Assembly (NCBI GenBank): GCA_038213035.1
Contig: JBBQTT010000001.1
Location: 1-40,123, forward strand
Direction: 5' to 3'
Length of the DNA: 40,123 nucleotides
Source of the DNA: Candidatus Saccharimonadales bacterium
GTDB taxonomy: Bacteria; Patescibacteriota; Saccharimonadia; Saccharimonadales; Saccharimonadaceae
Every line of letters starts with the position of its first letter. Position 1 is the stretch's first letter. Of this stretch, positions 1 to 40,123 are shown piece by piece. The notes beneath the pieces were generated by a model. That model worked only from the letters and a program-made list of their open reading frames with translations, had not been told where the DNA came from and did no database searches. The translations under genes and the position numbers were made by a program.

Positions 1-58
1 TTCGTCATCCGGCTTCCGGCCTTGCGAACTGCCGACGTGGCAGTTCTCACCCGGATTG
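1..58 (-). repeat. tRNA-linked structured core repeat, copy A (continues beyond the window start)
   Basis: The reverse complement of 1-52 is GGGTGAGAACTGCCACGTCGGCAGTTCGCAAGGCCGGAAGCCGGATGACGAA. It aligns with the copies at 279-383, 18642-18745 and 29318-29421. It lies downstream of tRNA-Glu in the same orientation. A perfect 10-bp foldback CCGGATTGAA/TTCAATCCGG (51-74) is built from tRNA-Glu variable-loop and T-stem sequence. Confidence 0.8.
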
Positions 59-254: not shown

Positions 255-383
255 GTTGCAGGACAGCCCTGGTGTCCTGTCACGATAAATTTTCTCCAAA
301 AATTTTCGCGACCTCGCCTCGCTTGGTTGCGTTCGCAATCCAGGCTCCGGCCTTGCGAACCGCCGACGTGGCGGTTCTCACCA
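255..383 (-). repeat. tRNA-linked structured core repeat, copy B (279-383), joined to a tRNA-Glu anticodon-arm-like fragment (255-278)
   Basis: The reverse complement is TGGTGAGAACCGCCACGTCGGCGGTTCGCAAGGCCGGAGCCTGGATTGCGAACGCAACCAAGCGAGGCGAGGTCGCGAAAATTTTTGGAGAAAATTTATCGTGAC. It is followed by AGGACACCAGGGCTGTCCTGCAA. Compare the tRNA-Glu sequence AGGACACCAGGTTTTCATCCTGGCAA. Confidence 0.8.
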
Positions 384-3891: not shown

Positions 3892-5088
3892 ATGAAAAAA
3901 TTAAGCGCAATATTCGCGATGATTGCAACTGCAATTATCATACCTGCAACTTTGTTTGCATGGGGACCAAGTCGCCCAACTTACACGATCGCAAATCCTG
4001 CTGATCATGTAACATTTAACTCAATTATCGATAACCCAGCTCAGGGCGATGAACGAAATTTCGTTCAAGTCCGTGACGCTGCCGCAAGTAATACAACTTA
4101 TGCCGATTCAATCAACCTGACAACAGGTCACGAATACGTCGTTTATGTTTATTACCACAACAACGCTGCATCTAATTTAAATGCTAGCGGTGTTGGTATC
4201 GCACACGGTGCATACGTTCAAGCTCAAATCCCTGCAGTCGTTGTTAACGGCAGCACAGATAAAGCTGTTGGATACGTCGGTGCCACTAATGCAAACCCAG
4301 GCGTAGTATGGGATGACATCAGCCTTACCAACAATACTGGTAGCGATGTTGCTTTACGTTACGTTCCAGGTTCTGCAACAATTCACAACTTTGGTGCCAC
4401 AAACGGTGCAGCCATGTCTGACAATATCGTAACTACAGGTGCAAATCTTGGTTATGATTCGTTAAACGGCGACCTACCTGGTTGTAATCAATTTGCTGGT
4501 TACGTAACTTTCCGTATCAAAGCTGATCAACCTAACTTTACAATTTCAAAAGAAGTTCGTATCGCTGGTTCAACAACTTGGTCAAAAAGCGTAGCTGCCA
4601 AAGCTGGCGACAGTCTTGAATACCGTATTCAATATGTCAACAGTGGTACAACCGACCAAAACAATGTTGTTATCAAAGACGTTTTACCTGCTAATATTAG
4701 CTACGTAAAAGGTTCGACAACAATTAAAAATGCAAGCAACCCAACTGGCAAAACAATTAGCGATAACCTTACCCTTAGTGGTATCAACATCGGTAATTAC
4801 ACCGCTGGATCAAATGCATTTGTGAAGTTTACTGCTAAAGTTGCAGCTGTTAATGCCCTAGTTTGTGGCACAAACACTATGACTAACACAGCAGAAGCCC
4901 AAACAAATAATGGTTCAAAACAGGATTCAGCAGTTGTCGTTGTTACAAAACAATGTCAATCTGTTCCTGAGCTTCCTCACACTGGTGCTAGTGAAAACAT
5001 CGCGGCGTTTATTGGCCTTGGTTTTATGACAACAGCTGCAGGTTATTACCTTGCTAGCCGTCGTGCAGCCACAATAATCCGCCGTTAA
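3892..5088 (+). CDS. LPXTG-type (LPHTG) cell-wall-anchored surface protein with a DUF11-like repeat domain
   Basis: AAGGAG lies 6 nt before the ATG at 3892. Signal peptide MKKLSAIFAMIATAIIIPATLFA. The C-terminus is LPHTG, then a hydrophobic segment, then RRAATIIRR. The internal segment KAGDSLEYRIQYVNSGTTDQNNVVIKDVLP resembles DUF11. Confidence 0.88.
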   Translation: MKKLSAIFAMIATAIIIPATLFAWGPSRPTYTIANPADHVTFNSIIDNPAQGDERNFVQVRDAAASNTTYADSINLTTGHEYVVYVYYHNNAASNLNASGVGIAHGAYVQAQIPAVVVNGSTDKAVGYVGATNANPGVVWDDISLTNNTGSDVALRYVPGSATIHNFGATNGAAMSDNIVTTGANLGYDSLNGDLPGCNQFAGYVTFRIKADQPNFTISKEVRIAGSTTWSKSVAAKAGDSLEYRIQYVNSGTTDQNNVVIKDVLPANISYVKGSTTIKNASNPTGKTISDNLTLSGINIGNYTAGSNAFVKFTAKVAAVNALVCGTNTMTNTAEAQTNNGSKQDSAVVVVTKQCQSVPELPHTGASENIAAFIGLGFMTTAAGYYLASRRAATIIRR

Positions 5089-6830: not shown

Positions 6831-7202
6831 ATGACCAAAATAGCCATTATCGAAGACGACTCAGTTATCAGCCAAATGTATCGAATGAAATTTGAGGCCG
6901 ACGGCTTTGATGTTCAACTTGCCAATAATGGCAAGCGTGGCGTCGCCTTGGTTGAAGCCTTTTTGCCAGACATTATTTTACTCGATTTACAAATGCCAGA
7001 AATGGATGGTGCCGAAGCACTAGAAATCATCCGCAAAAATGAATGGGGTAAAAATATTCCCGTTATCGTTCTGACTAATCTTGGCGAAGAAGAATCGCCA
7101 AAACAAATTCGCTCACTTGGAATCCACAGTTATATCGTCAAAGCCAATCTGACACCCCGACAAGTCGTCGGACGCGTCAAAGAAGCTTTAAATATAGTCT
7201 AA
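6831..7202 (+). CDS. Stand-alone response regulator receiver (CheY-like, no output domain)
   Basis: 123 aa. It has the EDD acidic pocket, the phospho-acceptor context ILLDLQMPEMDG, LTN, and the conserved Lys in VKA. Confidence 0.92.
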   Translation: MTKIAIIEDDSVISQMYRMKFEADGFDVQLANNGKRGVALVEAFLPDIILLDLQMPEMDGAEALEIIRKNEWGKNIPVIVLTNLGEEESPKQIRSLGIHSYIVKANLTPRQVVGRVKEALNIV

Positions 7203-18476: not shown

Positions 18477-18553
18477 GGGCCAGTAGCTCAGCTGGTTAGA
18501 GCACCTGCCTCTTAAGTAGGTTGTCGAGGGTTCAAGTCCCTCCTGGCCCTCCA
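18477..18553 (+). tRNA. tRNA-Lys (anticodon CTT), CCA encoded
   Basis: Acceptor GGGCCAG/CTGGCCC, anticodon arm CCTGC-CTCTTAA-GTAGG, T arm GAGGG-TTCAAGT-CCCTC, then TCCA. Confidence 0.93.
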
Positions 18554-18806
18554 AATAAAATAATCATCCATAAGGATGGTTATTTTATTTGGATGCTACG
18601 CAGGGGGGACTTAAAGCTTCGACAACCCTTGGGTTGTCTGAGGGTGAGAACCGCCACGTCGGCGGTTCGCAAGGCCGGAAGCCGGATGACGAACGTCACC
18701 GACTGAGGCGGGGTCGCGGAAATTTGCAAAGCAAATTATCTGTGGCTAATTCCCCGCTGGCCCTCCAAATTAAATATCCATCCTTCAGGATGGTTATTTA
18801 TTTTGG
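18551..18806 (+). repeat. tRNA-Lys-linked module, copy C: hairpin T1, inverted T-arm copy, direct variable-loop/T-stem copy, structured core, second tRNA 3'-end copy, hairpin T2
   Basis: T1 lies at 18551-18592. The inverted copy AGGGGGGACTTAAAGCTTCGACAACCC (18602-18628) approximates the reverse complement of tRNA variable loop plus T arm. The direct copy GGTTGTCTGAGGGT lies at 18632-18645 and the core at 18642-18745. TTCCCCGCTGGCCCTCCA (18750-18767) matches the tRNA 3' end GTCCCTCCTGGCCCTCCA. T2 (18765-18806) is homologous to T1. Confidence 0.85.
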
Positions 18807-18911
18807 AAGTGCTAGGCGATTGAAGTTTCGACTTGTCGAGTTTGCATTTTTTACAACACTCACTCTGTCACATATACCCTTTGCAAGGTTTATCCTTGCA
18901 AAAAAGCATAG

Positions 18912-19146
18912 GCAAAATAATAAACCCATCGATGATGAGTTTATTATTTTGGTACACCCGGACGGATATCGCCAGCAAACTGTCTCCTCCGCTCATTCGC
19001 GAAAAAATGTAAACACTTTTTCGCTCCAATCACTACGCCGAACCTGCCGACCTTAGATTTTGTAGGCAAAATCCAAGTCGGCGGTTCAGATTCGTATCGG
19101 CATGACCAAAGAAAACAGACTAGATATACTAGTCTGTTTTCTTTGG
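18912..19146 (-). repeat. tRNA-Arg(TCG)-linked module with a different insert
   Basis: All parts are read in tRNA sense. T1 lies at 19106-19146. The long foldback GAACCGCCGAC...GTCGGCAGGTTC (19040-19087) has a right arm that copies tRNA variable loop, T stem and TTCG. An insert of about 70 nt follows. An exact 18-nt copy of the tRNA 3' end ATCCGTCCGGGTGTACCA lies at 18950-17967 in error-free form as 18950-18967, matching 19144-19161. T2 lies at about 18912-18952. Confidence 0.85.
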
Positions 19147-19220
19147 TACACCCGGACGGATTCGAACCGCCGACCCTCTGTTCCGAAGACAGATGCTCTA
19201 ATCCACTGAGCTACGGGTGC
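19144..19220 (-). tRNA. tRNA-Arg (anticodon TCG), CCA encoded
   Basis: Acceptor GCACCCG/CGGGTGT, anticodon arm TCTGT-CTTCGGA-ACAGA, T arm GGCGG-TTCGAAT-CCGTC, then ACCA. Confidence 0.93.
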
Positions 19221-20737: not shown

Positions 20738-20779
20738 ACCCGCTTGCGATTAGACCCTAAAACGATTATGATTATAGTA

Positions 20780-21298
20780 ATGAAACGACGTGGGTTTACT
20801 ATCGTAGAGTTACTAATTGTTATCACTATCATGGGTGTCTTGTTAGTCTTAAGCGTTGCAAGTTTACGAAGCTCTCAAGCCAGCTCTCGTGACGTTGAGC
20901 GAAAAACCGATATAGAATCAATCGTTCTGGCATTAGATGATTATTATATAAATGGGTCAGACCTCAGCATAACTGTCGGTAAATACCCTTCAACATCACT
21001 AGTTAGCAATAACTTTACAATCAACGACCTAAAAAAGACCTTGCGTGATATTGATATAAAATCACTCACTGCCCCTAATGTCACCAACCCGACCACGACA
21101 TTCAAAGCCGCCGTCAATAATACACAAACGACAGCTGGTGTTTTACCGCAACCAACAGTTGATCAATATATTTATCAGCCGATAATGAACGATGGCACAT
21201 TATGCACCCTAGAATCTCAGGAATGTCGCAAATTTAACTTGTATTACAGATTAGAGGCAGATAACACCGTATATATGGTGACAGGAAAAAATCGATGA
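20780..21298 (+). CDS. Minor (pseudo)pilin with a prepilin-type N-terminal cleavage/methylation motif
   Basis: MKRRGFTIVELLIVITIMGVLL, where G|FT.E is the class III signal. I prefer the ATG at 20780 over the TTG at 20744. Confidence 0.85.
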   Translation: MKRRGFTIVELLIVITIMGVLLVLSVASLRSSQASSRDVERKTDIESIVLALDDYYINGSDLSITVGKYPSTSLVSNNFTINDLKKTLRDIDIKSLTAPNVTNPTTTFKAAVNNTQTTAGVLPQPTVDQYIYQPIMNDGTLCTLESQECRKFNLYYRLEADNTVYMVTGKNR

Positions 21299-21678
21299 AA
21301 AGCATATCTAAACAATCAGGCTTTACTGCTGTCGAATTATTGGTCACATTATTTATTGCCGCAGCATTTTTAATGTCTGGATATCAACTTTATAGTTTGA
21401 TTATGAAAGATGGTGGCGAAGTTCGTGCAACCGCCAAAGCCAGCAACGTAGTTTATGATTATATGCAACGATATAAACCATCAGCAACTAATCCTTGCAC
21501 CTCCCAAACACCTTTGACAGATTCAGCAATTACCGTTGATACATTGTCAAACACAACAATCACAGTCGCTATAACCTGCCCGTACAGCGCCACCCCGTCA
21601 TTATCTAAAATCACCGTCACAATGAAATATAACACCCCTCAACAAACAGTCAGCAATTCAACTTATGCCAAACCATAA
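21295..21678 (+). CDS. Minor (pseudo)pilin
   Basis: KQSGFTAVELLVTLFIAAAFL prepilin motif. There is a 4-nt overlap with the upstream pilin gene. Confidence 0.85.
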   Translation: MKSISKQSGFTAVELLVTLFIAAAFLMSGYQLYSLIMKDGGEVRATAKASNVVYDYMQRYKPSATNPCTSQTPLTDSAITVDTLSNTTITVAITCPYSATPSLSKITVTMKYNTPQQTVSNSTYAKP

Positions 21679-23461
21679 CAAATATCCCCGTAATTCCGGT
21701 TTCTCTTTGATAGAAATGTTGGTTGTAGCTCCAATTGTCATTCTGATGATTGGTATATTTGTTAGCGCAATTGTTGCGATGACTGGTGACGTATTGTCGA
21801 CGCGCAGCGCTAATTCCCTTTCGTACAATATACAGGATGCTCTGGACCGTATCGGTGCAGACATAAAATTAAGCGGCGGGCTGCTGGCAACAAATAATAT
21901 TATCTTGTCTTCGCCACAAGGTTTTAATAACGACACTACAAATTTTAAAAATGTTGACGCCACAAATGGCACGATGTTAATTTTAAACAGCTATACCACT
22001 ACTAGCAACCCATTAAATTCAACTCAAAACATACTTTATATGTCTAACCAGCCTAACCCCTGTGGAAGCGCGCAAATCAACCAAAACCCACCAGTCATGT
22101 TCAACACCGTCTATTTTGTAAAAAATAATACTTTATGGCGTCGAGTTATTGCGCCATCAAACTATGCAACTGTTGGCTGTTTAGGGGCATCTGTTGGTAT
22201 GCCCTGGCAACAACCCAGTTGTGCAACCGTAGTTGCAGGCACAATCTGTAAAACTCTAGACCAAAGATTGGTTGATAATGTCGCCACAAATGGTTTTATT
22301 GTTAGTTATTACACGAACAACAATTCTACCGTGCCAAATGCTACCGCCAGCGATAACACTAAATCTAATAGCGTCAGACAGTCAGCATTACAAACATCCA
22401 GTACGGTCAGTGTAACTATAAATGCCACCGCAACCGCAGCAGGGCGCACCGCCACCCAAACTGGCACGATTCGCGAAATTAGCCCGAATAATAATATCAA
22501 TTCAACTGCCGATACAATGTGGTCATCATTTAACATGCAAAATAGCTGGGTTGATCATGGGGGGGAATACTTTCAAAATGGTTATCGCAGGACCAAGGAT
22601 GGTGTTGTTGTATTACACGGTTTATTGCGAAGAAGTAGTGGGTCAATAGTGTCCGGCGAAATAATCGGGACCCTACCAGTCGGGTACAGACCATCCGAAC
22701 AATTAATATTCCAAACTAGTACAAACCCAAATGCAGCATCACGTGTTGACGTTTGTACAGATGGAACTGTACGCGTACTATCTGGTGATCCAGGATGGCT
22801 ATCACTCGACGGTATAAAATTCTTGTCATCCGATGCACCAGTCGTATTCACAAATTTAACGCCACAAAATAATTGGGTACCATACGGATCACCATTTTCA
22901 GCACCAGCTTATGCAATTGACGCAGACGGTAGAGTGCATGTAAAAGGGCTCGTAAAGAATGGCGTGGTCACAGACGGAACACCAATAGTTACCTTGCCTG
23001 TTGGCTATCAGCCATTAGAATACAATCATATAGCAGTCGACAATACCGGTGCGTCTGGTTTTATTGGAGTTGATACAAATAAAAATATTGTTGCAAAAGG
23101 TGGAGCTAACGGATATCTATCGTTACAATCAATATTTTATACTTCAAGCTACACCGATTGGCATGGTATGACATTACAAAACGGGTGGGTTTATTATGGC
23201 TCAAGCCTTACTACACCCGCATACACCAAAGCAACTGATGGACTTGTTAGTTTGAAAGGATTAATCAAAACCGGAACAGTAGGAACTACCATAACTACCC
23301 TTCCAGCCGGTTATAGACCAGCCCAAAGGATTTTATATCACAGTGTCAGTTCTGGTGTTTACTATAGATTAGATATCAACAGTAACGGCGATGTTATTTG
23401 CGTATCAGGCAACAACGGTTGGATGTCACTGGACGGAGTTGTATTCTACGCCGATAATTAA
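21665..23461 (+). CDS. Large minor pilin-like protein with three tandem C-terminal repeats of about 100 aa (candidate tip adhesin)
   Basis: RNSGFSLIEMLVV prepilin-like N-terminus. The repeats span aa 286-388, 395-492 and 499-596. They share W...QN.W..YG......Y....DG.V.L.GL...G......I..LP.GY.P ... G...LSL(D/Q). Confidence 0.85.
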   Translation: MPNHNKYPRNSGFSLIEMLVVAPIVILMIGIFVSAIVAMTGDVLSTRSANSLSYNIQDALDRIGADIKLSGGLLATNNIILSSPQGFNNDTTNFKNVDATNGTMLILNSYTTTSNPLNSTQNILYMSNQPNPCGSAQINQNPPVMFNTVYFVKNNTLWRRVIAPSNYATVGCLGASVGMPWQQPSCATVVAGTICKTLDQRLVDNVATNGFIVSYYTNNNSTVPNATASDNTKSNSVRQSALQTSSTVSVTINATATAAGRTATQTGTIREISPNNNINSTADTMWSSFNMQNSWVDHGGEYFQNGYRRTKDGVVVLHGLLRRSSGSIVSGEIIGTLPVGYRPSEQLIFQTSTNPNAASRVDVCTDGTVRVLSGDPGWLSLDGIKFLSSDAPVVFTNLTPQNNWVPYGSPFSAPAYAIDADGRVHVKGLVKNGVVTDGTPIVTLPVGYQPLEYNHIAVDNTGASGFIGVDTNKNIVAKGGANGYLSLQSIFYTSSYTDWHGMTLQNGWVYYGSSLTTPAYTKATDGLVSLKGLIKTGTVGTTITTLPAGYRPAQRILYHSVSSGVYYRLDINSNGDVICVSGNNGWMSLDGVVFYADN

Positions 23462-23466
23462 TCCAA

Positions 23467-23496
23467 TTGTGCTAAACACAAAAAATATAGTATATT
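23467..23496 (+). promoter_or_regulatory. Candidate promoter of pilin gene 1 (TTGTGC box plus TATATT)
   Basis: TTGTGC at 23467-23472, an 18-nt spacer, then TATATT at 23491-23496. The same TTGTGC(T) box precedes all four pilin paralogs. Confidence 0.45.
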
Positions 23497-23526
23497 ATAA
23501 CCATAACCAATATCTGGGGGGCTTTC

Positions 23527-24057
23527 ATGATTAACAGAAACATCGATATCAAAAAATCACACGGGTTCACAATCGTAGAACTGCTGGTTGTTATCGTTGT
23601 CATCGGTATCTTGGCCGCTATTACGATTATTTCTTATACTGGTATCTTGCAAAGGGCCAATACTACCAAGGCCCTCAGTAACGCTCAATCAGCCCAAAAC
23701 GTAGCTGAAATCTATTTTTCAGATAAAACCGCATACCCAGTTACAACTGGCGACTTCAGTCGTGAAGACATAAGCGCTCAGTTGCCTTCAGGGGTAATAA
23801 TTGCACTTGGCCAAGGCGGTACGCTTGCAGGCGGATGGACTGGTGTCGAACCACTCAACCTACTGCCGGATTCAGATAAAACGATGACGGTAACATGGGC
23901 ATGTTCAGGTGGTACAGCAAGTGACAGCAACTGCGTTGGTGCAACTGGTGGCAAGATTACATATTGGGACTTTACTGGCACACCAGCCGTATCCACAAAC
24001 ATTCTTTACGTTGGTATGGCTAAATCAACTTCGACTTTTTTCACACCTTCTTCGTAA
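23527..24057 (+). CDS. Type IV pilin (PilA-like) paralog 1
   Basis: KKSHGFTIVELLVVIVVIGILAAITIISYTG. A GGGGGG SD lies upstream, and there is a C-terminal Cys pair. Confidence 0.9.
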   Translation: MINRNIDIKKSHGFTIVELLVVIVVIGILAAITIISYTGILQRANTTKALSNAQSAQNVAEIYFSDKTAYPVTTGDFSREDISAQLPSGVIIALGQGGTLAGGWTGVEPLNLLPDSDKTMTVTWACSGGTASDSNCVGATGGKITYWDFTGTPAVSTNILYVGMAKSTSTFFTPSS

Positions 24058-24082
24058 AACAACAGATTATAAATATAATAAA

Positions 24083-24113
24083 AATAGGACCTGCGAAAGT
24101 AGGCCCTATTTTG
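24083..24113 (+). terminator. Terminator hairpin after pilin 1
   Basis: AATAGGACCT-GCGAAAGT-AGGCCCTATT followed by TTGT, with one mismatch in the stem. Confidence 0.55.
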
Positions 24114-24120
24114 TATCACA

Positions 24121-24155
24121 TTGTGCTTGTGTTTATAAAATTAGTAAATTATAAT
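24121..24155 (+). promoter_or_regulatory. Candidate promoter of pilin gene 2
   Basis: TTGTGC at 24121-24126 and TTGTGT at 24127-24132. A 17-nt spacer leads to TATAAT at 24150-24155. Confidence 0.5.
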
Positions 24156-24198
24156 GTTATCAGTTCAGCTATATAAAAAATTAGGGAGGCAACAGAAC

Positions 24199-24759
24199 AT
24201 GACAAATACAACAAACGTAATCAAAAAAGAACGCGGTTTCACAATCGTAGAACTTTTGGTTGTTATCGTTGTTATCGGTATTTTGGCGGCGATTACTATC
24301 GTTTCTTATACTGGTATCACAGCCAAGGCAAATGCAGCTGCCACAAAACAAATGGCATCTAACATTATCGCTAAAGCCGGTATCTATCAAACAGAAGGTT
24401 CAACACTTAACTGGCCACTAACAGGTGCGCTTGCTATGTCAGCAACCGATTCATCATCGGCTATTACTGGTATAACGGTACAAAATGGCGCAACTTTAGC
24501 TGCTGCAAGTATGACAAAGATTTCATACCAGGTCTGTGGTACTACATCACAGACTGGTGCTGTTTTCACAGCACCAGCTAACTTAGCAGCTATTACTAAC
24601 CCAACCGGCGTTATTGTTGGATACTGGGATTACAGTCTAGCAACACCAGCACAAGCTACATTGTCCGCTGGAAACGCAGCCGCAGGTACAGCTGGACCAT
24701 ACATTTCAGGTGGAACAACATACGCAAACCTTGTTGCATGTTACTACACAGCTAGCTAG
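24199..24759 (+). CDS. Type IV pilin paralog 2
   Basis: A GGGAGG SD lies 8 nt before the ATG at 24199. The sequence is MTNTTNVIKKERGFTIVELLVVIVVIGILAAITIVSYTG, with GYWDY and a Cys pair near the C-terminus. Confidence 0.9.
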   Translation: MTNTTNVIKKERGFTIVELLVVIVVIGILAAITIVSYTGITAKANAAATKQMASNIIAKAGIYQTEGSTLNWPLTGALAMSATDSSSAITGITVQNGATLAAASMTKISYQVCGTTSQTGAVFTAPANLAAITNPTGVIVGYWDYSLATPAQATLSAGNAAAGTAGPYISGGTTYANLVACYYTAS

Positions 24760-24781
24760 TTAATATAACTAAATAGCTTTT

Positions 24782-24807
24782 AAACCCCCAGAAAACTGGG
24801 GGTTTAA
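24782..24807 (+). terminator. Terminator hairpin after pilin 2
   Basis: AAACCCCCAG-AAAA-CTGGGGGTTT. Confidence 0.7.
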
Positions 24808-24859
24808 ACATGCCAATACAATAATGCTATTAACTCATAATAAAAACTCACGATATCGC

Positions 24860-24888
24860 TTGTGCTAATAACGATGACATAGTATTAT
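24860..24888 (+). promoter_or_regulatory. Candidate promoter of pilin gene 3
   Basis: CGCTTGTGCTAAT contains TTGTGC at 24860-24865. A 17-nt spacer leads to TATTAT at 24883-24888. Confidence 0.5.
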
Positions 24889-24938
24889 ATTACTATTATA
24901 ATTATAATTAAATTACATTTCATAGGGGGCTTTAAAAA

Positions 24939-25433
24939 ATGATGTCAATCAACACAATTAATAACCAGAGCCACGGTCTTACGATCATAAAACATTCAGG
25001 AAAACTGAATCACGGTTTCACAATCGTAGAACTGCTGGTTGTTATCGTTGTTATCGGTATTTTGGCAGCGATTACTATCGTTTCTTATACTGGAATTACC
25101 GCCAAGGCTAATACAACTGCTAATAAAAATAATGCCAACAGCGTTCGTCGTGTAGCGCAAATAGTATATACTAATACTAGTTCATTCCCAGTAACAAACG
25201 CCACTTCAGCTACAGTAATTGCTGCATTGAATGCTAGCGATGCTAAGATCCCATCAGGTCTTACTGTAACAAACGGTGCCGTAGCATCAGGATCAGCTAT
25301 CACTTACGTACTTAAGGGTGCAACAGGCATCTGTGTTGGATACTGGGACTACAGCGGTGCTGGTTCAGCAGCTTGGTTGTACGCCGGTGACGCAACAACA
25401 GGTACCAGCGGTACACCTTCAACTTGCGCTTAA
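24939..25433 (+). CDS. Type IV pilin paralog 3
   Basis: GGGGGC SD. The sequence is NHGFTIVELLVVIVVIGILAAITIVSYTG. It is a close paralog of pilin 4 (SSFPVT.ATSATVIAALN.SDAKIPSGLTVT, GICVGYWDYS). Confidence 0.9.
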   Translation: MMSINTINNQSHGLTIIKHSGKLNHGFTIVELLVVIVVIGILAAITIVSYTGITAKANTTANKNNANSVRRVAQIVYTNTSSFPVTNATSATVIAALNASDAKIPSGLTVTNGAVASGSAITYVLKGATGICVGYWDYSGAGSAAWLYAGDATTGTSGTPSTCA

Positions 25434-25441
25434 CAAAACGC

Positions 25442-25475
25442 TTGTGCTAATGTAAATTTTGTAGTAAATTATAAA
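25442..25475 (+). promoter_or_regulatory. Candidate promoter of pilin gene 4
   Basis: CGCTTGTGCTAAT is identical to the box before pilin 3. The -10 is either TAAATT (25465-25470) or TATAAA (25470-25475). Confidence 0.4.
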
Positions 25476-25500
25476 CATAATAAATAATTAGGGGGCACAC

Positions 25501-25947
25501 ATGACACAAGGAAATATCAAAATCAAAGAACGCGGTTTCACAATCGTAGAACTTTTGGTTGTTATCGTTGTTATCGGTATTTTGGCAACGATTACTATCG
25601 TTTCTTATACTGGTATCACAGCTAAAGCAAATACAGCTGCTAACAAACAAAATGCAAGTAGTGTTATTGCTACTGCTCAAATCGTTTACGCTAATACAAG
25701 TTCATTCCCAGTAACAAGCGCTACTTCAGCTACAGTAATTGCTGCATTGAATTCTAGCGATGCTAAGATCCCATCAGGTCTTACTGTAACAAGTACATCT
25801 GTGACTTCAGGCACAGCTACTGCGCTTTCCTACCGCCAAAAAGCTAATACTGGTATCTGTGTTGGATACTGGGATTACAGCATTCCTGGCGTAGCTTACC
25901 TATTCGGTGGCGATGCAACAGCTGACAACGGTACAGCCTGTTCATAG
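25501..25947 (+). CDS. Type IV pilin paralog 4
   Basis: AGGGGG SD. The sequence is KERGFTIVELLVVIVVIGILATITIVSYTG. The 5' region of about 100 nt is near-identical to pilins 2 and 3. Confidence 0.9.
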   Translation: MTQGNIKIKERGFTIVELLVVIVVIGILATITIVSYTGITAKANTAANKQNASSVIATAQIVYANTSSFPVTSATSATVIAALNSSDAKIPSGLTVTSTSVTSGTATALSYRQKANTGICVGYWDYSIPGVAYLFGGDATADNGTACS

Positions 25948-29298: not shown

Positions 29299-29494
29299 GT
29301 GCTAATGACGGGGATTGGTCACGATAAAAATCATTCTAATTTTTTCGCGACCCCGCCTCAGTCGGTGACGTTCGTCATCCGGCTTCCGGCCTTGCGCAGT
29401 GCAGACTTGCACTGCTCACCCGCTACCACCGCGGGTTCAATACCCGTAACGTTCCAAATAAAAAAGAAGGCATAAAGCCTTCATTTTTATTTGG
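29299..29494 (-). repeat. tRNA-His-linked module, copy D
   Basis: All parts are read in tRNA sense. T1 lies at 29454-29494. The inverted T-arm copy ACGGGTATTGAACCCGC lies at 29431-29447. The direct copy GGTAGCGGGT lies at 29418-29427 and the core at 29318-29421. CAATCCCCGTCATT (29304-29317) equals the tRNA-His T-loop/acceptor segment at 29499-29512. Confidence 0.85.
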
Positions 29495-29569
29495 GGCGAA
29501 TGACGGGGATTGAACCCGCTACCTTCGGAACCACAACCCGACGCTCTAACCAGATGAGCTACATTCGCC
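29492..29569 (-). tRNA. tRNA-His (anticodon GTG) with encoded G-1 and CCA
   Basis: G-1 plus acceptor GCGAATG/CATTCGC, discriminator C, anticodon arm TCGGG-TTGTGGT-TCCGA, T arm GCGGG-TTCAATC-CCCGT. An upstream TGtTACAAT forms an extended -10. Confidence 0.92.
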
Positions 29570-29673: not shown

Positions 29674-29748
29674 GCGGGCGTCGTATAAAGGCTAATATGT
29701 CTGCCTTCCAAGCAAACGATGAGAGTTCGATTCTCTCCGCCCGCACCA
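29674..29748 (+). tRNA. tRNA-Gly (anticodon TCC), CCA encoded
   Basis: Acceptor GCGGGCG/CGCCCGC, anticodon arm TCTGC-CTTCCAA-GCAAA (one C-A mismatch), T arm GAGAG-TTCGATT-CTCTC, then ACCA. Confidence 0.85.
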
Positions 29749-29980
29749 AAGAAAAAAGTTGTGTCCCTGGATACAACTTTTTTCTTTGGTATGTGTTGGT
29801 GAATCGAACTCTCATCGACGATTCGCTGTCCAGCGAAGAGTCAGATGAGAGTTCGTGAAGCGCCGTGCAGCAAAATCAGTTTACTTATTTTGCCAACAAG
29901 CGAAAATAGGGAATGAAATGACCGCCTTCTCTCCGCCCACACCAAAGAAAAAGAGATTCGTTGAATCTCTTTTTCTATGG
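29746..29980 (+). repeat. tRNA-Gly-linked module with a different insert
   Basis: T1 lies at 29746-29789. The inverted copy GAATCGAACTCTCATCG (29801-29817) is the perfect reverse complement of the tRNA segment CGATGAGAGTTCGATTC. The direct copy GATGAGAGTTCG lies at 29844-29855 and a 71-nt insert at 29856-29926. TTCTCTCCGCCCACACCA (29927-29944) matches the tRNA sequence TTCTCTCCGCCCGCACCA. T2 lies at 29942-29980. Confidence 0.85.
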
Positions 29981-29993
29981 TCTGAGTTGGTTT

Positions 29994-31239: not shown

Positions 31240-31329
31240 AAATAAAATAATCAGCCAATGGGTTGATTATTTTATTTTGATTCCAGGGATTGGATTGAAC
31301 CAACGACCGCCTGACAACCCAGGGTACTA
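31237..31329 (+). repeat. tRNA-Arg(TCT)-linked minimal module (no long insert)
   Basis: T1 lies at 31237-31279. The inverted T-arm copy GGGATTGGATTGAACCAACGACC (31286-31308) approximates the reverse complement of the tRNA segment GGTCGTTGGTTCAATTCCAACCC. After GCCTGAC comes AACCCAGGGTAC (31316-31327), which equals the tRNA 3' end at 31226-31237. Confidence 0.75.
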
Positions 31330-31393
31330 AAATTCTGATATAATCAAAATATAGTAATAAACATCACATAACCCCAAAAGGATTATACAAAAA

Positions 31394-38936: not shown

Positions 38937-39012
38937 CGGGGTGTGGCGCAGTTGATAGCGCGCTCGGTTTGGGACCGAGAGGTCGAAGGTTTGAGTCCTT
39001 TCACCCCGACCA
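38937..39012 (+). tRNA. tRNA-Pro (anticodon TGG), CCA encoded
   Basis: Acceptor CGGGGTG/CACCCCG, anticodon arm CTCGG-TTTGGGA-CCGAG, T arm GAAGG-TTTGAGT-CCTTT, then ACCA. A TATAAT lies at 38914-38919. Confidence 0.9.
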
Positions 39013-40123
39013 AGAAGTATTTTCGCTTAAATCCACCATCAAGTCGTATGGTGGATTTAGCTTTATAACAGATATAAAGTCGTCATTTGCTCGGAGGTTC
39101 AACACCACCTCACGATAGACTAAATCTTCTTCGACCACATCGGTCGTTTTTAGTATCGTTTCCAGATACGAATTGATGAGTTCAACAAATTCTTCACGAG
39201 TCGGCAATGCGTTACTCAATCGTATCTTTTCTTCCTCTAATTTAGCGATGAGGTCTTCAATGGAGATGATTTGAGCTTGATGAAAATCTAATTTGCCGTT
39301 GTGGTATTGTTTGTATTCAACAGGGTTGGATACTTGGAAATTCTGATATTTTGAGTAGTAATCTCTCTGGAGTTTTAGGTCATTTTTAGCATCTGCTAGC
39401 TTACGCCTGACAGTCGCTCGCTTAACGACTACATCACTCTCTATGCGGTCTATATATCGCTTATGAGCTTCACCTACATTTTCCGTAAGATGTCTTAGAG
39501 TCCACTCGATATGAGCATTTACAAATTTAGCTCTAATCCCTTTGGGTAGTTTGTGGCCATACTTCAGAATAGCTTCCTTATCATTATGGCGAATACACTC
39601 TTTATTGCGACAATAAAAGCTAAATAGCCATTTGCCCTTATTTTTACCACGCTGAAGCTTGGTTCGCTGGAACGTCATAACCCTATCGCAGAAATCACAA
39701 ATGACTTTTTCTCGTAGCAATCCAAACTCTAGCCGTTGTGCTACATTGCCACGACCTCTAAATTCTTTATCAAAACTACTCGCTATATTGCGACCAAGCG
39801 TTATAAATTCGTCTGGTGTTATCAGTGGCAAGAAGTTGTACTGGTCGTTTAAGTTAGAGATGTTATCACCGTGCTTATAAACGCCAGTGTAAAACTCGTC
39901 TGTCAGAAAATCCGACACCATATTCTTAGTCATTTTAACTAGCTTATACTCGTCCTGTTCGGTCTTACGAACGCTCAAATGAGAATCGTTAAGGAAGTCG
40001 GCTATATATTCACCGGTAGCTCGGTCATTTAGTCTCATCAGGACGGCTTTACGCAGTAATTGCCAATTATGACTATCTGGCATATAGTAGCCTGTCGCAG
40101 AGTCCTTATAGTAGCCTTTTTTG
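39001..40123 (-). CDS. Large serine recombinase (integrase), C-terminal portion; the 5' end lies outside the window
   Basis: The reading frame is open to the window edge. It has a recombinase-domain-like region, a zinc-ribbon CDFCDRVMTF...YCRNKECIRH, and a coiled-coil-rich C-terminus. The stop codon lies inside the 3' end of tRNA-Pro. Confidence 0.75.
   Translation of the reverse strand, partial: KKGYYKDSATGYYMPDSHNWQLLRKAVLMRLNDRATGEYIADFLNDSHLSVRKTEQDEYKLVKMTKNMVSDFLTDEFYTGVYKHGDNISNLNDQYNFLPLITPDEFITLGRNIASSFDKEFRGRGNVAQRLEFGLLREKVICDFCDRVMTFQRTKLQRGKNKGKWLFSFYCRNKECIRHNDKEAILKYGHKLPKGIRAKFVNAHIEWTLRHLTENVGEAHKRYIDRIESDVVVKRATVRRKLADAKNDLKLQRDYYSKYQNFQVSNPVEYKQYHNGKLDFHQAQIISIEDLIAKLEEEKIRLSNALPTREEFVELINSYLETILKTTDVVEEDLVYREVVLNLRANDDFISVIKLNPPYDLMVDLSENTSWSG

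Follow-up and report, generated by a model that had tools for sequence, protein, structure and literature searches.

The window, a 40,123-nt stretch of contig JBBQTT010000001.1 to which all coordinates below refer unless a locus L-number is given, contains four copies (A, B, C and D) of a ~102-nt repeat found at tRNA genes. The sequence under study, 18646-18669, reads GAGAACCGCCACGTCGGCGGTTCG directly from the window, and is P1, the 5'-terminal hairpin of copy C of this three-hairpin repeat (P1, P2-P3 and P4). The repeat belongs to a Saccharibacteria-specific, previously undescribed superfamily of small structured elements nesting in tRNA genes. This superfamily, with its unusual insertion signature, is of more interest than the idea, raised in an earlier note on this DNA, that the repeat core is a mosaic of captured tRNA pieces; at most one old capture is supported.

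Copy C (18645-18746, + strand; 102 nt) consists of TGAGA-P1-GCAAGG, the long P2-P3 hairpin, and a P4 hairpin ending in GTGGC. In its P1 hairpin (18648-18668, +), the arms GAACCGCC and GGCGGTTC are formed by pairing of 18648-18655 with 18661-18668 around the loop ACGTC (18656-18660), and the hairpin is closed by pairing of UG (18645-6) with CA (18670-1). The predicted fold of the copy has a minimum free energy of -46.5 kcal/mol (z = -4.5) and equals the consensus structure of the family. The 3' side of P1 includes the 12-mer GTCGGCGGTTCG (18658-18669, +), which is identical to positions 46-57 of tRNA-Arg(TCG).

The host gene of copy C is the intact tRNA-Lys(CTT) gene (18477-18553, +), the terminator hairpin of which extends to about 18593. 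Contiguous with the terminator palindrome is S' (18594-18628, +), in which tRNA-Lys positions 44-76 are copied in inverse orientation, the T loop being uninterrupted, followed by the left flank of copy C (18632-18644, +), a direct copy of tRNA-Lys positions 44-53 ending in ..GGG. This left flank and the end of S' form the foldback hairpin P0, with the loop ttg (18629-18631). The right flank (18747-18808, +) comprises the diverged tRNA-Lys positions 56-76 and a second terminator, with T54 and T55 missing. The orthologous tRNA-Lys locus L062 has its promoter and foldback hairpin (loop ttg) in common with the copy C locus and differs in P1 and P4; these hairpins are thus exchanged or turn over at a fixed locus.

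Structure and distribution of the repeat family

A core motif scan of one-per-species genomes located 62 loci, the named hosts of which are nearly all Saccharibacteria (two matches were judged to be due to chance), while the scan gave 120 further metagenome stretches with the motif and no match in viral contigs. In all, contigs of Saccharibacteria contain about 170 copies besides the four in the window. Each of two metagenome-assembled genomes (MNZN01 and JBAQEV01) contains 8-9 copies that fit the strict pattern. Searches of the core with Rfam covariance models returned no family, either at the gathering threshold or at E <= 10, and no description of the repeat was found in the literature searched on tRNA insertions, introns, mobile elements and RNA motifs in Saccharibacteria and the Candidate Phyla Radiation.

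An alignment of 61 copies folds into P1, the long P2-P3 and P4. Paired cells amount to 97.4% in this alignment, against 27-48% when the 3' partners are slid, and compensatory changes occur at 25 of 36 pairs overall and at 8 of the 10 P1 pairs. A G-U pair, which is possible on the tRNA-sense strand only, is kept in 59 of the 61 copies. Resemblances seen by eye to hammerhead and twister ribozymes, signal recognition particle domain IV, transfer-messenger RNA (tmRNA) and the k-turn were rejected, with the motifs out of order or incomplete, in agreement with Rfam.

The elements of the superfamily are 90-105 nt long, non-coding and devoid of open reading frames (ORFs), and are present in many copies per genome. 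They have constant ends (5' TGAGA-P1-GCAAGG and 3' CGGGGTCGCG..CGTGAC) and interchangeable middle hairpins. Several families have the 5' module TGAGA-P1-GCAAGG and the 3' module CGGGGTCGCGGAACGTGAC in common, with unrelated middle hairpins, and minimal forms are ~90 nt long. The two ends (TGAGAAC.. and ..CGTGAC) are not inverted copies of each other, and terminal inverted repeats (TIRs) are thus absent. P1 is the most variable part, with 48 alleles in the 61 aligned copies and 106 in 223 elements with the 5' module.

The other copies in the window vary accordingly in their P1. Copy A (1-49, -), which is cut by the window edge, lies downstream of tRNA-Glu (136-210) and has the P1 allele GAACTGCC/GGCAGTTC (26-46, -). 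Copy B (279-380, -) lies in the D loop of a tRNA-Glu 5' fragment (381-398), upstream of the intact tRNA-Glu, and its P1 (357-377, -) is identical in allele to that of copy C. Copy D (29318-29418, -), downstream of tRNA-His (29492-29568), has a P1 (29396-29415, -) of the sequence GCAGTGCA/TGCACTGC, which is not tRNA-like. The tRNA genes of the window lie on both strands, and each element is oriented with its own tRNA. Partial duplicates flank six of the seven tRNA genes, and four of those duplicates carry the repeat.

Insertion sites in duplicated tRNA genes

Throughout the superfamily, insertion follows a simple grammar. Within 260 nt, 140 copies have a tRNA gene on the same strand and 3 have one on the opposite strand, with 27 isoacceptor types involved. 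The T loop at 54-55 is the commonest site; others are the D loop, the D stem and the anticodon loop, with a few copies in the acceptor stem. Among 145 unique left junctions, the base at -1 is G in 142, that at -2 is G in 124 and A in 19, and that at -3 is a purine in 131. Set against the intact neighbour, 70 of 78 unique junctions lack exactly two nucleotides of the tRNA, and there is no target duplication. The lost dinucleotides are TT, CA, AG, GT, CT, GA or CG, and the right flanks differ wholly between sites (CAAGT, AGGGC, GAGGC, CTAGT, CGCG).

This grammar bears on the earlier proposal that successive pieces of tRNA were carried from locus to locus by flank transduction, a behaviour of IS91, ISCR and Helitron elements. 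The ends of the elements are precise. Of 125 testable copies, 92 have 9-nt flanks that agree on both sides with the neighbouring tRNA, allowing up to 2 mismatches, and no copy was seen with a flank derived from a different tRNA. With flanks local throughout, nothing is transduced.

The elements reside in a truncated extra tRNA copy beside an intact gene. On the side facing the intact gene only ~10-16 nt of tRNA are left, followed by a foldback; on the opposite side, the fragment reaches the tRNA end and has a promoter or terminator of its own. In downstream-type modules the inverted arm extends back as far as the terminator. As copy C, L032 and the Arg(TCG) module show, the layout proceeds from the intact 3' half and terminator to an inverted copy with an uninterrupted T loop, and from there to a direct copy bearing the element. 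Of 61 downstream-type modules, 43 have a hairpin directly against the 5' end of the element (median stem length, 10 nt). Upstream-type modules contain a convincing symmetric long inverted copy in a few cases only (L177, L059), and most have a short hairpin. In-silico removal of the element gave a whole tRNA call in 1 of 156 copies, and that copy also has an intact gene adjoining; the elements are thus not tolerated as introns.

The 3' ends of all window tRNAs have their encoded CCA within a long perfect A-tract/T-tract terminator hairpin (CCAAATAAAAT...ATTTTATTTGG; for example, 18551-18593, 96-135 and 29746-29790), a palindrome at which the inverted duplications turn. Downstream of tRNA-Arg(TCT), at 31240-31330 (+), a terminator-centred palindrome combines inverted tRNA positions 46-76 with a partial direct copy and contains no element; it is either a remnant after element loss or a duplication made without an element. 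The motif GACCGCCTGACAAC at this palindrome is also present at the element-bearing locus L094.

Members of other families are nested in the core family at GAGGCGGG-GT-CGCG, after GGG, with two bases replaced. These nested insertions have no duplication, showing that duplication is not intrinsic to insertion. Tandem or nested elements were observed at L034 (~4150-4460, -), where two cores lie within one tRNA-Gln fragment, and at L015, L063, L068, L099, L109, L153 and L182. At L017 (~6850-7000, -) a core lies in an antisense copy of tRNA-Leu(CAA), at GGGGG-AC-TTGAA, in keeping with the G-G and 2-nt rule; it is the only clearly antisense copy among those examined in detail.

Some cores occupy the loops of other hairpins. 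At L150 (~1150-1450) and L090, the same locus in different genomes, a ~24-bp inverted repeat downstream of a gene holds the core in its loop, and a segment comprising 10 nt and the core is inverted between the two, as if flipped via recombination between the arms. At L165 (~1000-1500) and L081 (~600-1050), the core lies in a hairpin loop of a GC-rich ~450-nt region that is closed by 26-nt inverted repeats and conserved in two genomes. Rfam and ARAGORN gave no Rfam, tRNA or tmRNA match for this region, which may be an unrecognised structured RNA gene tolerating the insert.

The conservation of structure and context raises the alternative that the repeats are non-mobile host RNA genes built into spare tRNA fragments, for instance so as to be expressed from tRNA promoters or terminators or to be processed, with P1 as a functional T-arm mimic. 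Strong purifying selection on the structure, a nearly invariant centre, the long retention of orthologous copies in very small genomes (e.g. the tRNA-Gln series) and the constant sense orientation relative to the tRNA are all consistent with such a role. By contrast, families that share both ends and have unrelated middles follow the logic of transposons rather than that of one RNA function. The elements also nest in one another, again at R-G-G and again replacing 2 nt, and occupy at least five positions in 27 tRNA types, non-tRNA hairpin loops and one antisense tRNA copy. In P1, moreover, the TTC is base-paired, so a T loop cannot form. As an explanation, non-mobile host RNA genes are quite unlikely.

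Comparison with known mobile elements

The closest known target rule is that of the IS607 family, which has a (G)GG target, no TIRs and no target-site duplication (TSD) (PMC6188088); the (G)GG preference and the lack of TIRs and TSDs are found in the repeat as well. However, IS607 exchange over an identical GG predicts GG at both junctions, whereas the repeat has GG on the left only, and its right junction reads ..GTGAC/N3, with N1N2 missing. IS607 elements are also ~2 kb long and contain tnpA and tnpB, compared with the 90-105 nt, strand-specific hairpins and absence of an ORF in the repeat. No IS607-type serine TnpA was seen among the window proteins, to which this search was confined. Serine-recombinase exchange, including exchange over mismatched dinucleotides, was rejected, as it predicts the target dinucleotide or GG at the junction(s), which was not observed.

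The miniature derivatives of IS200/IS605 (PATEs) and the REP/RAYT elements are likewise small and non-coding, with hairpins at or near both ends and neither inverted ends nor duplication. They also share with the repeat a short motif in the left flank only and strand specificity, and they move as single strands. With P1 at its 5' end, P4 at its 3' end, a fixed strand and no TSD, the repeat is of IS200/IS605 type in these respects. It differs in that IS200/IS605 derivatives insert exactly 3' of a 4-5-nt target without base loss, while the repeat loses 2 nt. PATEs and REP/RAYT elements have subterminal hairpins and guide tetranucleotides and are oriented by replication, whereas the orientation of the repeat follows each tRNA gene. 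No Y1 HUH transposase was identified for the repeat.

Group II class C introns, Euglena group III introns and twintrons offer another set of likenesses, including sense-strand insertion beside a hairpin, nested elements, a 5' (G)UGAG where introns have GUGYG, and a 3' AC where they have AY. Family a further resembles these introns in a terminal hairpin whose bulged A(Y) is 6-8 nt away from the 3' end, and the ~100-nt size is that of group III introns. Unlike group II and group III introns, the repeat lacks domain V and EBS-like pairing with the flanks, and its minimal members lack the bulged A. Reverse splicing of introns is exact, whereas the repeat loses two target bases and its hosts are dead gene fragments. 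Rfam intron families gave no match to the core, and equation of the P2-P3 hairpin with group II domain V was ruled out by a bulge on the wrong strand and a GAAC loop. The mobile tRNA introns of Thermoproteales, which have a bulge-helix-bulge (BHB) motif, likewise place one short insert at many non-canonical positions in many tRNAs. The repeat differs from these in its bacterial hosts and in its interrupted copies, which are truncated pseudogenes neighbouring an intact gene. A constant BHB involving the start of the element is not available, because the right flanks vary freely.

tRNA-targeting islands and prophages (attL/attR, tycheposons) similarly keep an intact tRNA and have a direct repeat of the tRNA 3' end and terminator around the inserted DNA. 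The repeat, by contrast, has no integrase, no cargo, an inverted copy between the direct ones, and R-G-G instead of an att core. An integrase att-site model was ruled out by the presence of the same insert at at least five positions in 27 tRNA types, and a Campbell-type or circular intermediate was rejected, no head-to-tail junction having been found. IS91, ISCR and Helitron elements bring along variable flank stretches from earlier sites, whereas the ends of the repeat are constant (TGAGA...GTGAC). IS91 inserts next to GTTC/CTTG and Helitrons between A and T, without base loss, as against R-G-G and the two nucleotides lost from the repeat's target in 70 of 78 junctions. Like miniature inverted-repeat transposable elements the repeat is short, non-coding and multicopy, but it has neither TIRs nor a TSD.

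A small fixed target deletion is known from R2 retrotransposons (2 bp in R2Bm). Unlike the repeat, these are autonomous elements of eukaryotes that encode a reverse transcriptase and an endonuclease and have a single rDNA target. A search of 1.2 Mb of sequence for longer autonomous relatives, in which the 5' and 3' modules would lie far apart, found only separate elements flanking a tRNA.

Two further features of the window lie away from the repeats. An ORF at 39004-40083 (-) contains the Pfam 'Recombinase' (large serine recombinase) domain without the catalytic N-terminal domain and terminates inside the 3' end of tRNA-Pro (38937-39012); an integrated element that continues beyond the window probably has its edge here. 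A pilin-like gene cluster with N-terminal methylation motifs occupies 20744-25947 (+), and its tandem paralogues explain the direct repeats D1/D2 (23554-25819).

P1, the tRNA T arm and the proposed history of the elements

The idea of tRNA capture was based on the likeness of P1 to tRNA-Arg(TCG) (19144-19220, -), of which 19163-19174 (-) comprises the variable loop, the 5' strand of the T stem and TTCG. The identity holds: GTCGGCGGTTCG occurs exactly at 18658-18669 (+), in copy B at 356-367 (-) and in tRNA-Arg(TCG) at 19163-19174 (-), and with one mismatch in copy A at 25-36 (-) and in an inverted T-arm copy at 19077-19088. These 5 window matches at up to 1 mismatch compare with 0.10 expected, and none of 100 shuffles reached 5. 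When the core of copy C was dinucleotide-shuffled and compared with the seven window tRNAs, 12 of 2000 shuffles (0.6%; p about 0.006) shared a 12-mer or longer, so that simple chance is an unlikely source of the identity, although the test is post hoc. The foldback to which the earlier note had likened P1 is also real. It lies at 19040-19087 (-), within the module 18936-19143, where an inverted partial copy of tRNA-Arg(TCG) (S') meets a direct one (S''). Its two arms agree with the P1 of copies B and C at 21 of 23 positions. This likeness is not independent evidence, because P1 and the foldback both contain the same T-arm half and its complement.

Two further supports for a mosaic fell away. 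The match of GGTGAGA to the 3' acceptor strand of tRNA-Glu is present and uninformative, 7-8-mers being the modal chance match; it has no weight because TGAGA starts every copy beside every tRNA and the GG comes from the local target. The TTCG preceding the inserts in the Arg(TCG) and Gly modules, which had been taken as part of the tRNA T loop, is most likely borne by the insert. Relatives of the insert beside TTCAAGT T loops (L045, L066, L092) still start with GTCG directly after G53, suggesting that the TTCG is element-borne and that these inserts too start after ..GG.

The inserts concerned belong to two further, related families. The module downstream of tRNA-Arg(TCG) (18936-19143, -) contains el2, GCGTAGTGATTGGAGCG-AAAAAGTGTTTACATTTTTT-CGCGAATGAGCGGAGGAG..GCGATAT, which has 14 further copies at other loci, starting with (G/T)TCG directly after G53. 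The module downstream of tRNA-Gly(TCC) (29749-29990, +) contains the related insert el3, which starts with TTCG-TGAAGCG and has five further copies elsewhere; this module holds a duplicated tRNA 3' end at 29927-29952.

If P1 had been captured repeatedly, its variants would be expected to follow the T arms of tRNAs. They do not follow the neighbouring tRNA. The allele of copies B and C adjoins His, Glu, Pro, Ile and Lys tRNAs, and that of copy D adjoins Ser, Arg, Leu, Ile, Lys and His tRNAs. In a set of 228 tRNAs (171 distinct sequences, with 91 distinct 12-mers for positions 46-57), only one P1 allele, present in 11 elements, matches a T arm exactly, that of Arg(TCG)/Ala(CGC). Eight 3' halves lie within one mismatch of any T arm, seven of them one step from the Arg(TCG)/Ala(CGC) 12-mer and the eighth one step from a doubtful Phe(AAA) call. 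The stem of copy D, GCAGTGCA, which is of the commonest type (17 elements), has at most 8 nt in common with any tRNA, the level of the reversed-sequence control.

Serial capture thus draws on the 12-nt identity with its foldback likeness, on the T-arm-like frame of P1 and on the clear reshuffling of modules among copies and families. Against it stand the restriction of P1 matches to a single type, Arg(TCG)/Ala(CGC), the independence of P1 from the local tRNA, the precise ends with local flanks, and the TGAGA match to tRNA-Glu, a 5-7-mer that occurs in every copy at chance level. In addition, the 5' module heads families with unrelated middles and hence is older than those families. As an account of the repeat, a mosaic of successive tRNA pieces is very improbable, and repeated capture with flank transduction is essentially excluded. 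What survives of the mosaic idea is the plausibility of one old capture.

A single capture has support of its own. In a position weight matrix (PWM) built from real tRNA positions 46-57, 17 of 35 P1 3' halves score within the true T-arm range and the consensus GTCGGCAGTTCG scores 13.8, whereas no other 12-mer of the core exceeds 4.2 and shuffles have a 99th percentile of 3.3. P1 reads as an antisense copy of the variable loop, the 5' strand of the T stem and TTC, followed by a minimal loop and a sense copy through TTCG. The loop ACGTC is a palindrome centre, GAC/GTC, as in the true foldback L001 (GAACCTGCGAC-G-GTCGCAGG), and the stem includes TTC in just the way that the Arg(TCG) and Gly module foldbacks do. 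P1 therefore has the anatomy of the foldback hairpins that flank insertions, which makes it plausible that it derives from a single ancient T-arm foldback of the Arg(TCG)/Ala(CGC) type. Because the TGAGA-P1-GCAAGG end module is common to families with unrelated middles, P1 is not a recent passenger.

Taken as a whole, the best explanation is on balance that the repeats are non-autonomous mobile elements in tRNA genes and that the T-arm-like half of P1 is a relic of one old foldback. Under this explanation, non-autonomous elements would enter the sense strand of transcribed tRNA genes. Two observations favour such entry into one strand: orientation follows transcription and not a single replication direction, and the inverted copy, which must have had the complementary strand as its template, is without the element. 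An interrupted tRNA gene would not be tolerated, and insertions would persist only with a partial duplication, which may arise via template switching at the terminator palindrome and so rebuild an intact gene. P1 would be required as a shape rather than as a sequence, drifting by compensated changes and being exchanged among copies. Its T-arm-like 3' half would most likely be the relic of one old foldback of the Arg(TCG)/Ala(CGC) type turned into an element end, and no capture would be ongoing now. More tentatively, the elements may represent an undescribed hairpin-ended mobile class, characterized by sense-strand entry into transcribed genes after R-G-G, exact 2-nt excision and survival in essential tRNA genes only through rescue by replication template switching, with P1 as an exapted tRNA-Arg foldback fossil.

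Several observations pull the other way. No transposase, reverse transcriptase or integrase linked to the elements was found, the window holding housekeeping genes and the truncated serine-recombinase ORF at tRNA-Pro, and neither an empty/filled site pair nor a circle or head-to-tail junction was found. To our knowledge, an exact 2-nt loss fits no bacterial mechanism. Many genomes retain orthologous copies (e.g. the tRNA-Gln position-23 series), whose changes preserve the structure, and this persistence could reflect host function rather than selfish spread. As to P1, the full GTC-N5-TTCG frame is kept in only 12 of 79 distinct 3' halves, and TTCG is present in P1 because the closing pairs GAGAAC/GUUCG are conserved. 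An exact GGCGG arises easily from G(G/T)C(G/A)G alleles, a column-permutation null giving at least one exact match in 84% of trials, and the bases preceding P1 (GTGA) are unlike an inverted T loop (ATTC).

Chance or convergence is a serious rival to the relic, backed by the count of full frames and by the permutation null. In that case P1 would be a GC-rich structural hairpin whose conserved closing pairs (UGA-GAAC...GUUC-G-CA), together with a common xGUC loop, yield the generic tRNA motif GUC-N5-UUCG by coincidence, and the identity with tRNA-Arg(TCG) would be one drift step from the consensus allele, without history. The free variation of the P1 stem positions with compensation agrees with this, as do the predominance of the consensus GGCAG (21 elements) over GGCGG (11), the un-tRNA-like character of the commonest allele and the post hoc nature of the 12-mer test. 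Coincidence explains less well why about half of the alleles reach real T arms in register in the PWM and no other element window does, or why the palindromic loop centre and the extension of the stem through TTC recur in genuine foldbacks. Convergence without any tRNA ancestry is possible, though the less likely reading.

For Saccharibacteria, the finding concerns organisms with tiny genomes and single-copy tRNA genes, in which most window tRNA genes are yet flanked by partial duplicates. The direct-inverted-direct duplications are a natural record of the rescue of an essential gene after insertion. The modules also matter for annotation, since they yield false or split tRNA calls, as at L014 (6359-6445), where a false 87-nt ARAGORN 'tRNA-Gly(CCC)' is the 5' part of a tRNA fused to an element. 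The insertion signature (R-G-G, 2-nt loss, no TIR or TSD, and a sense orientation set by the tRNA rather than by replication) fits no transposition chemistry described for bacteria, and a new enzyme or an RNA-mediated route may lie behind it. If P1 is indeed an exapted foldback fossil, host tRNA sequence would have been turned into a functional transposon end.

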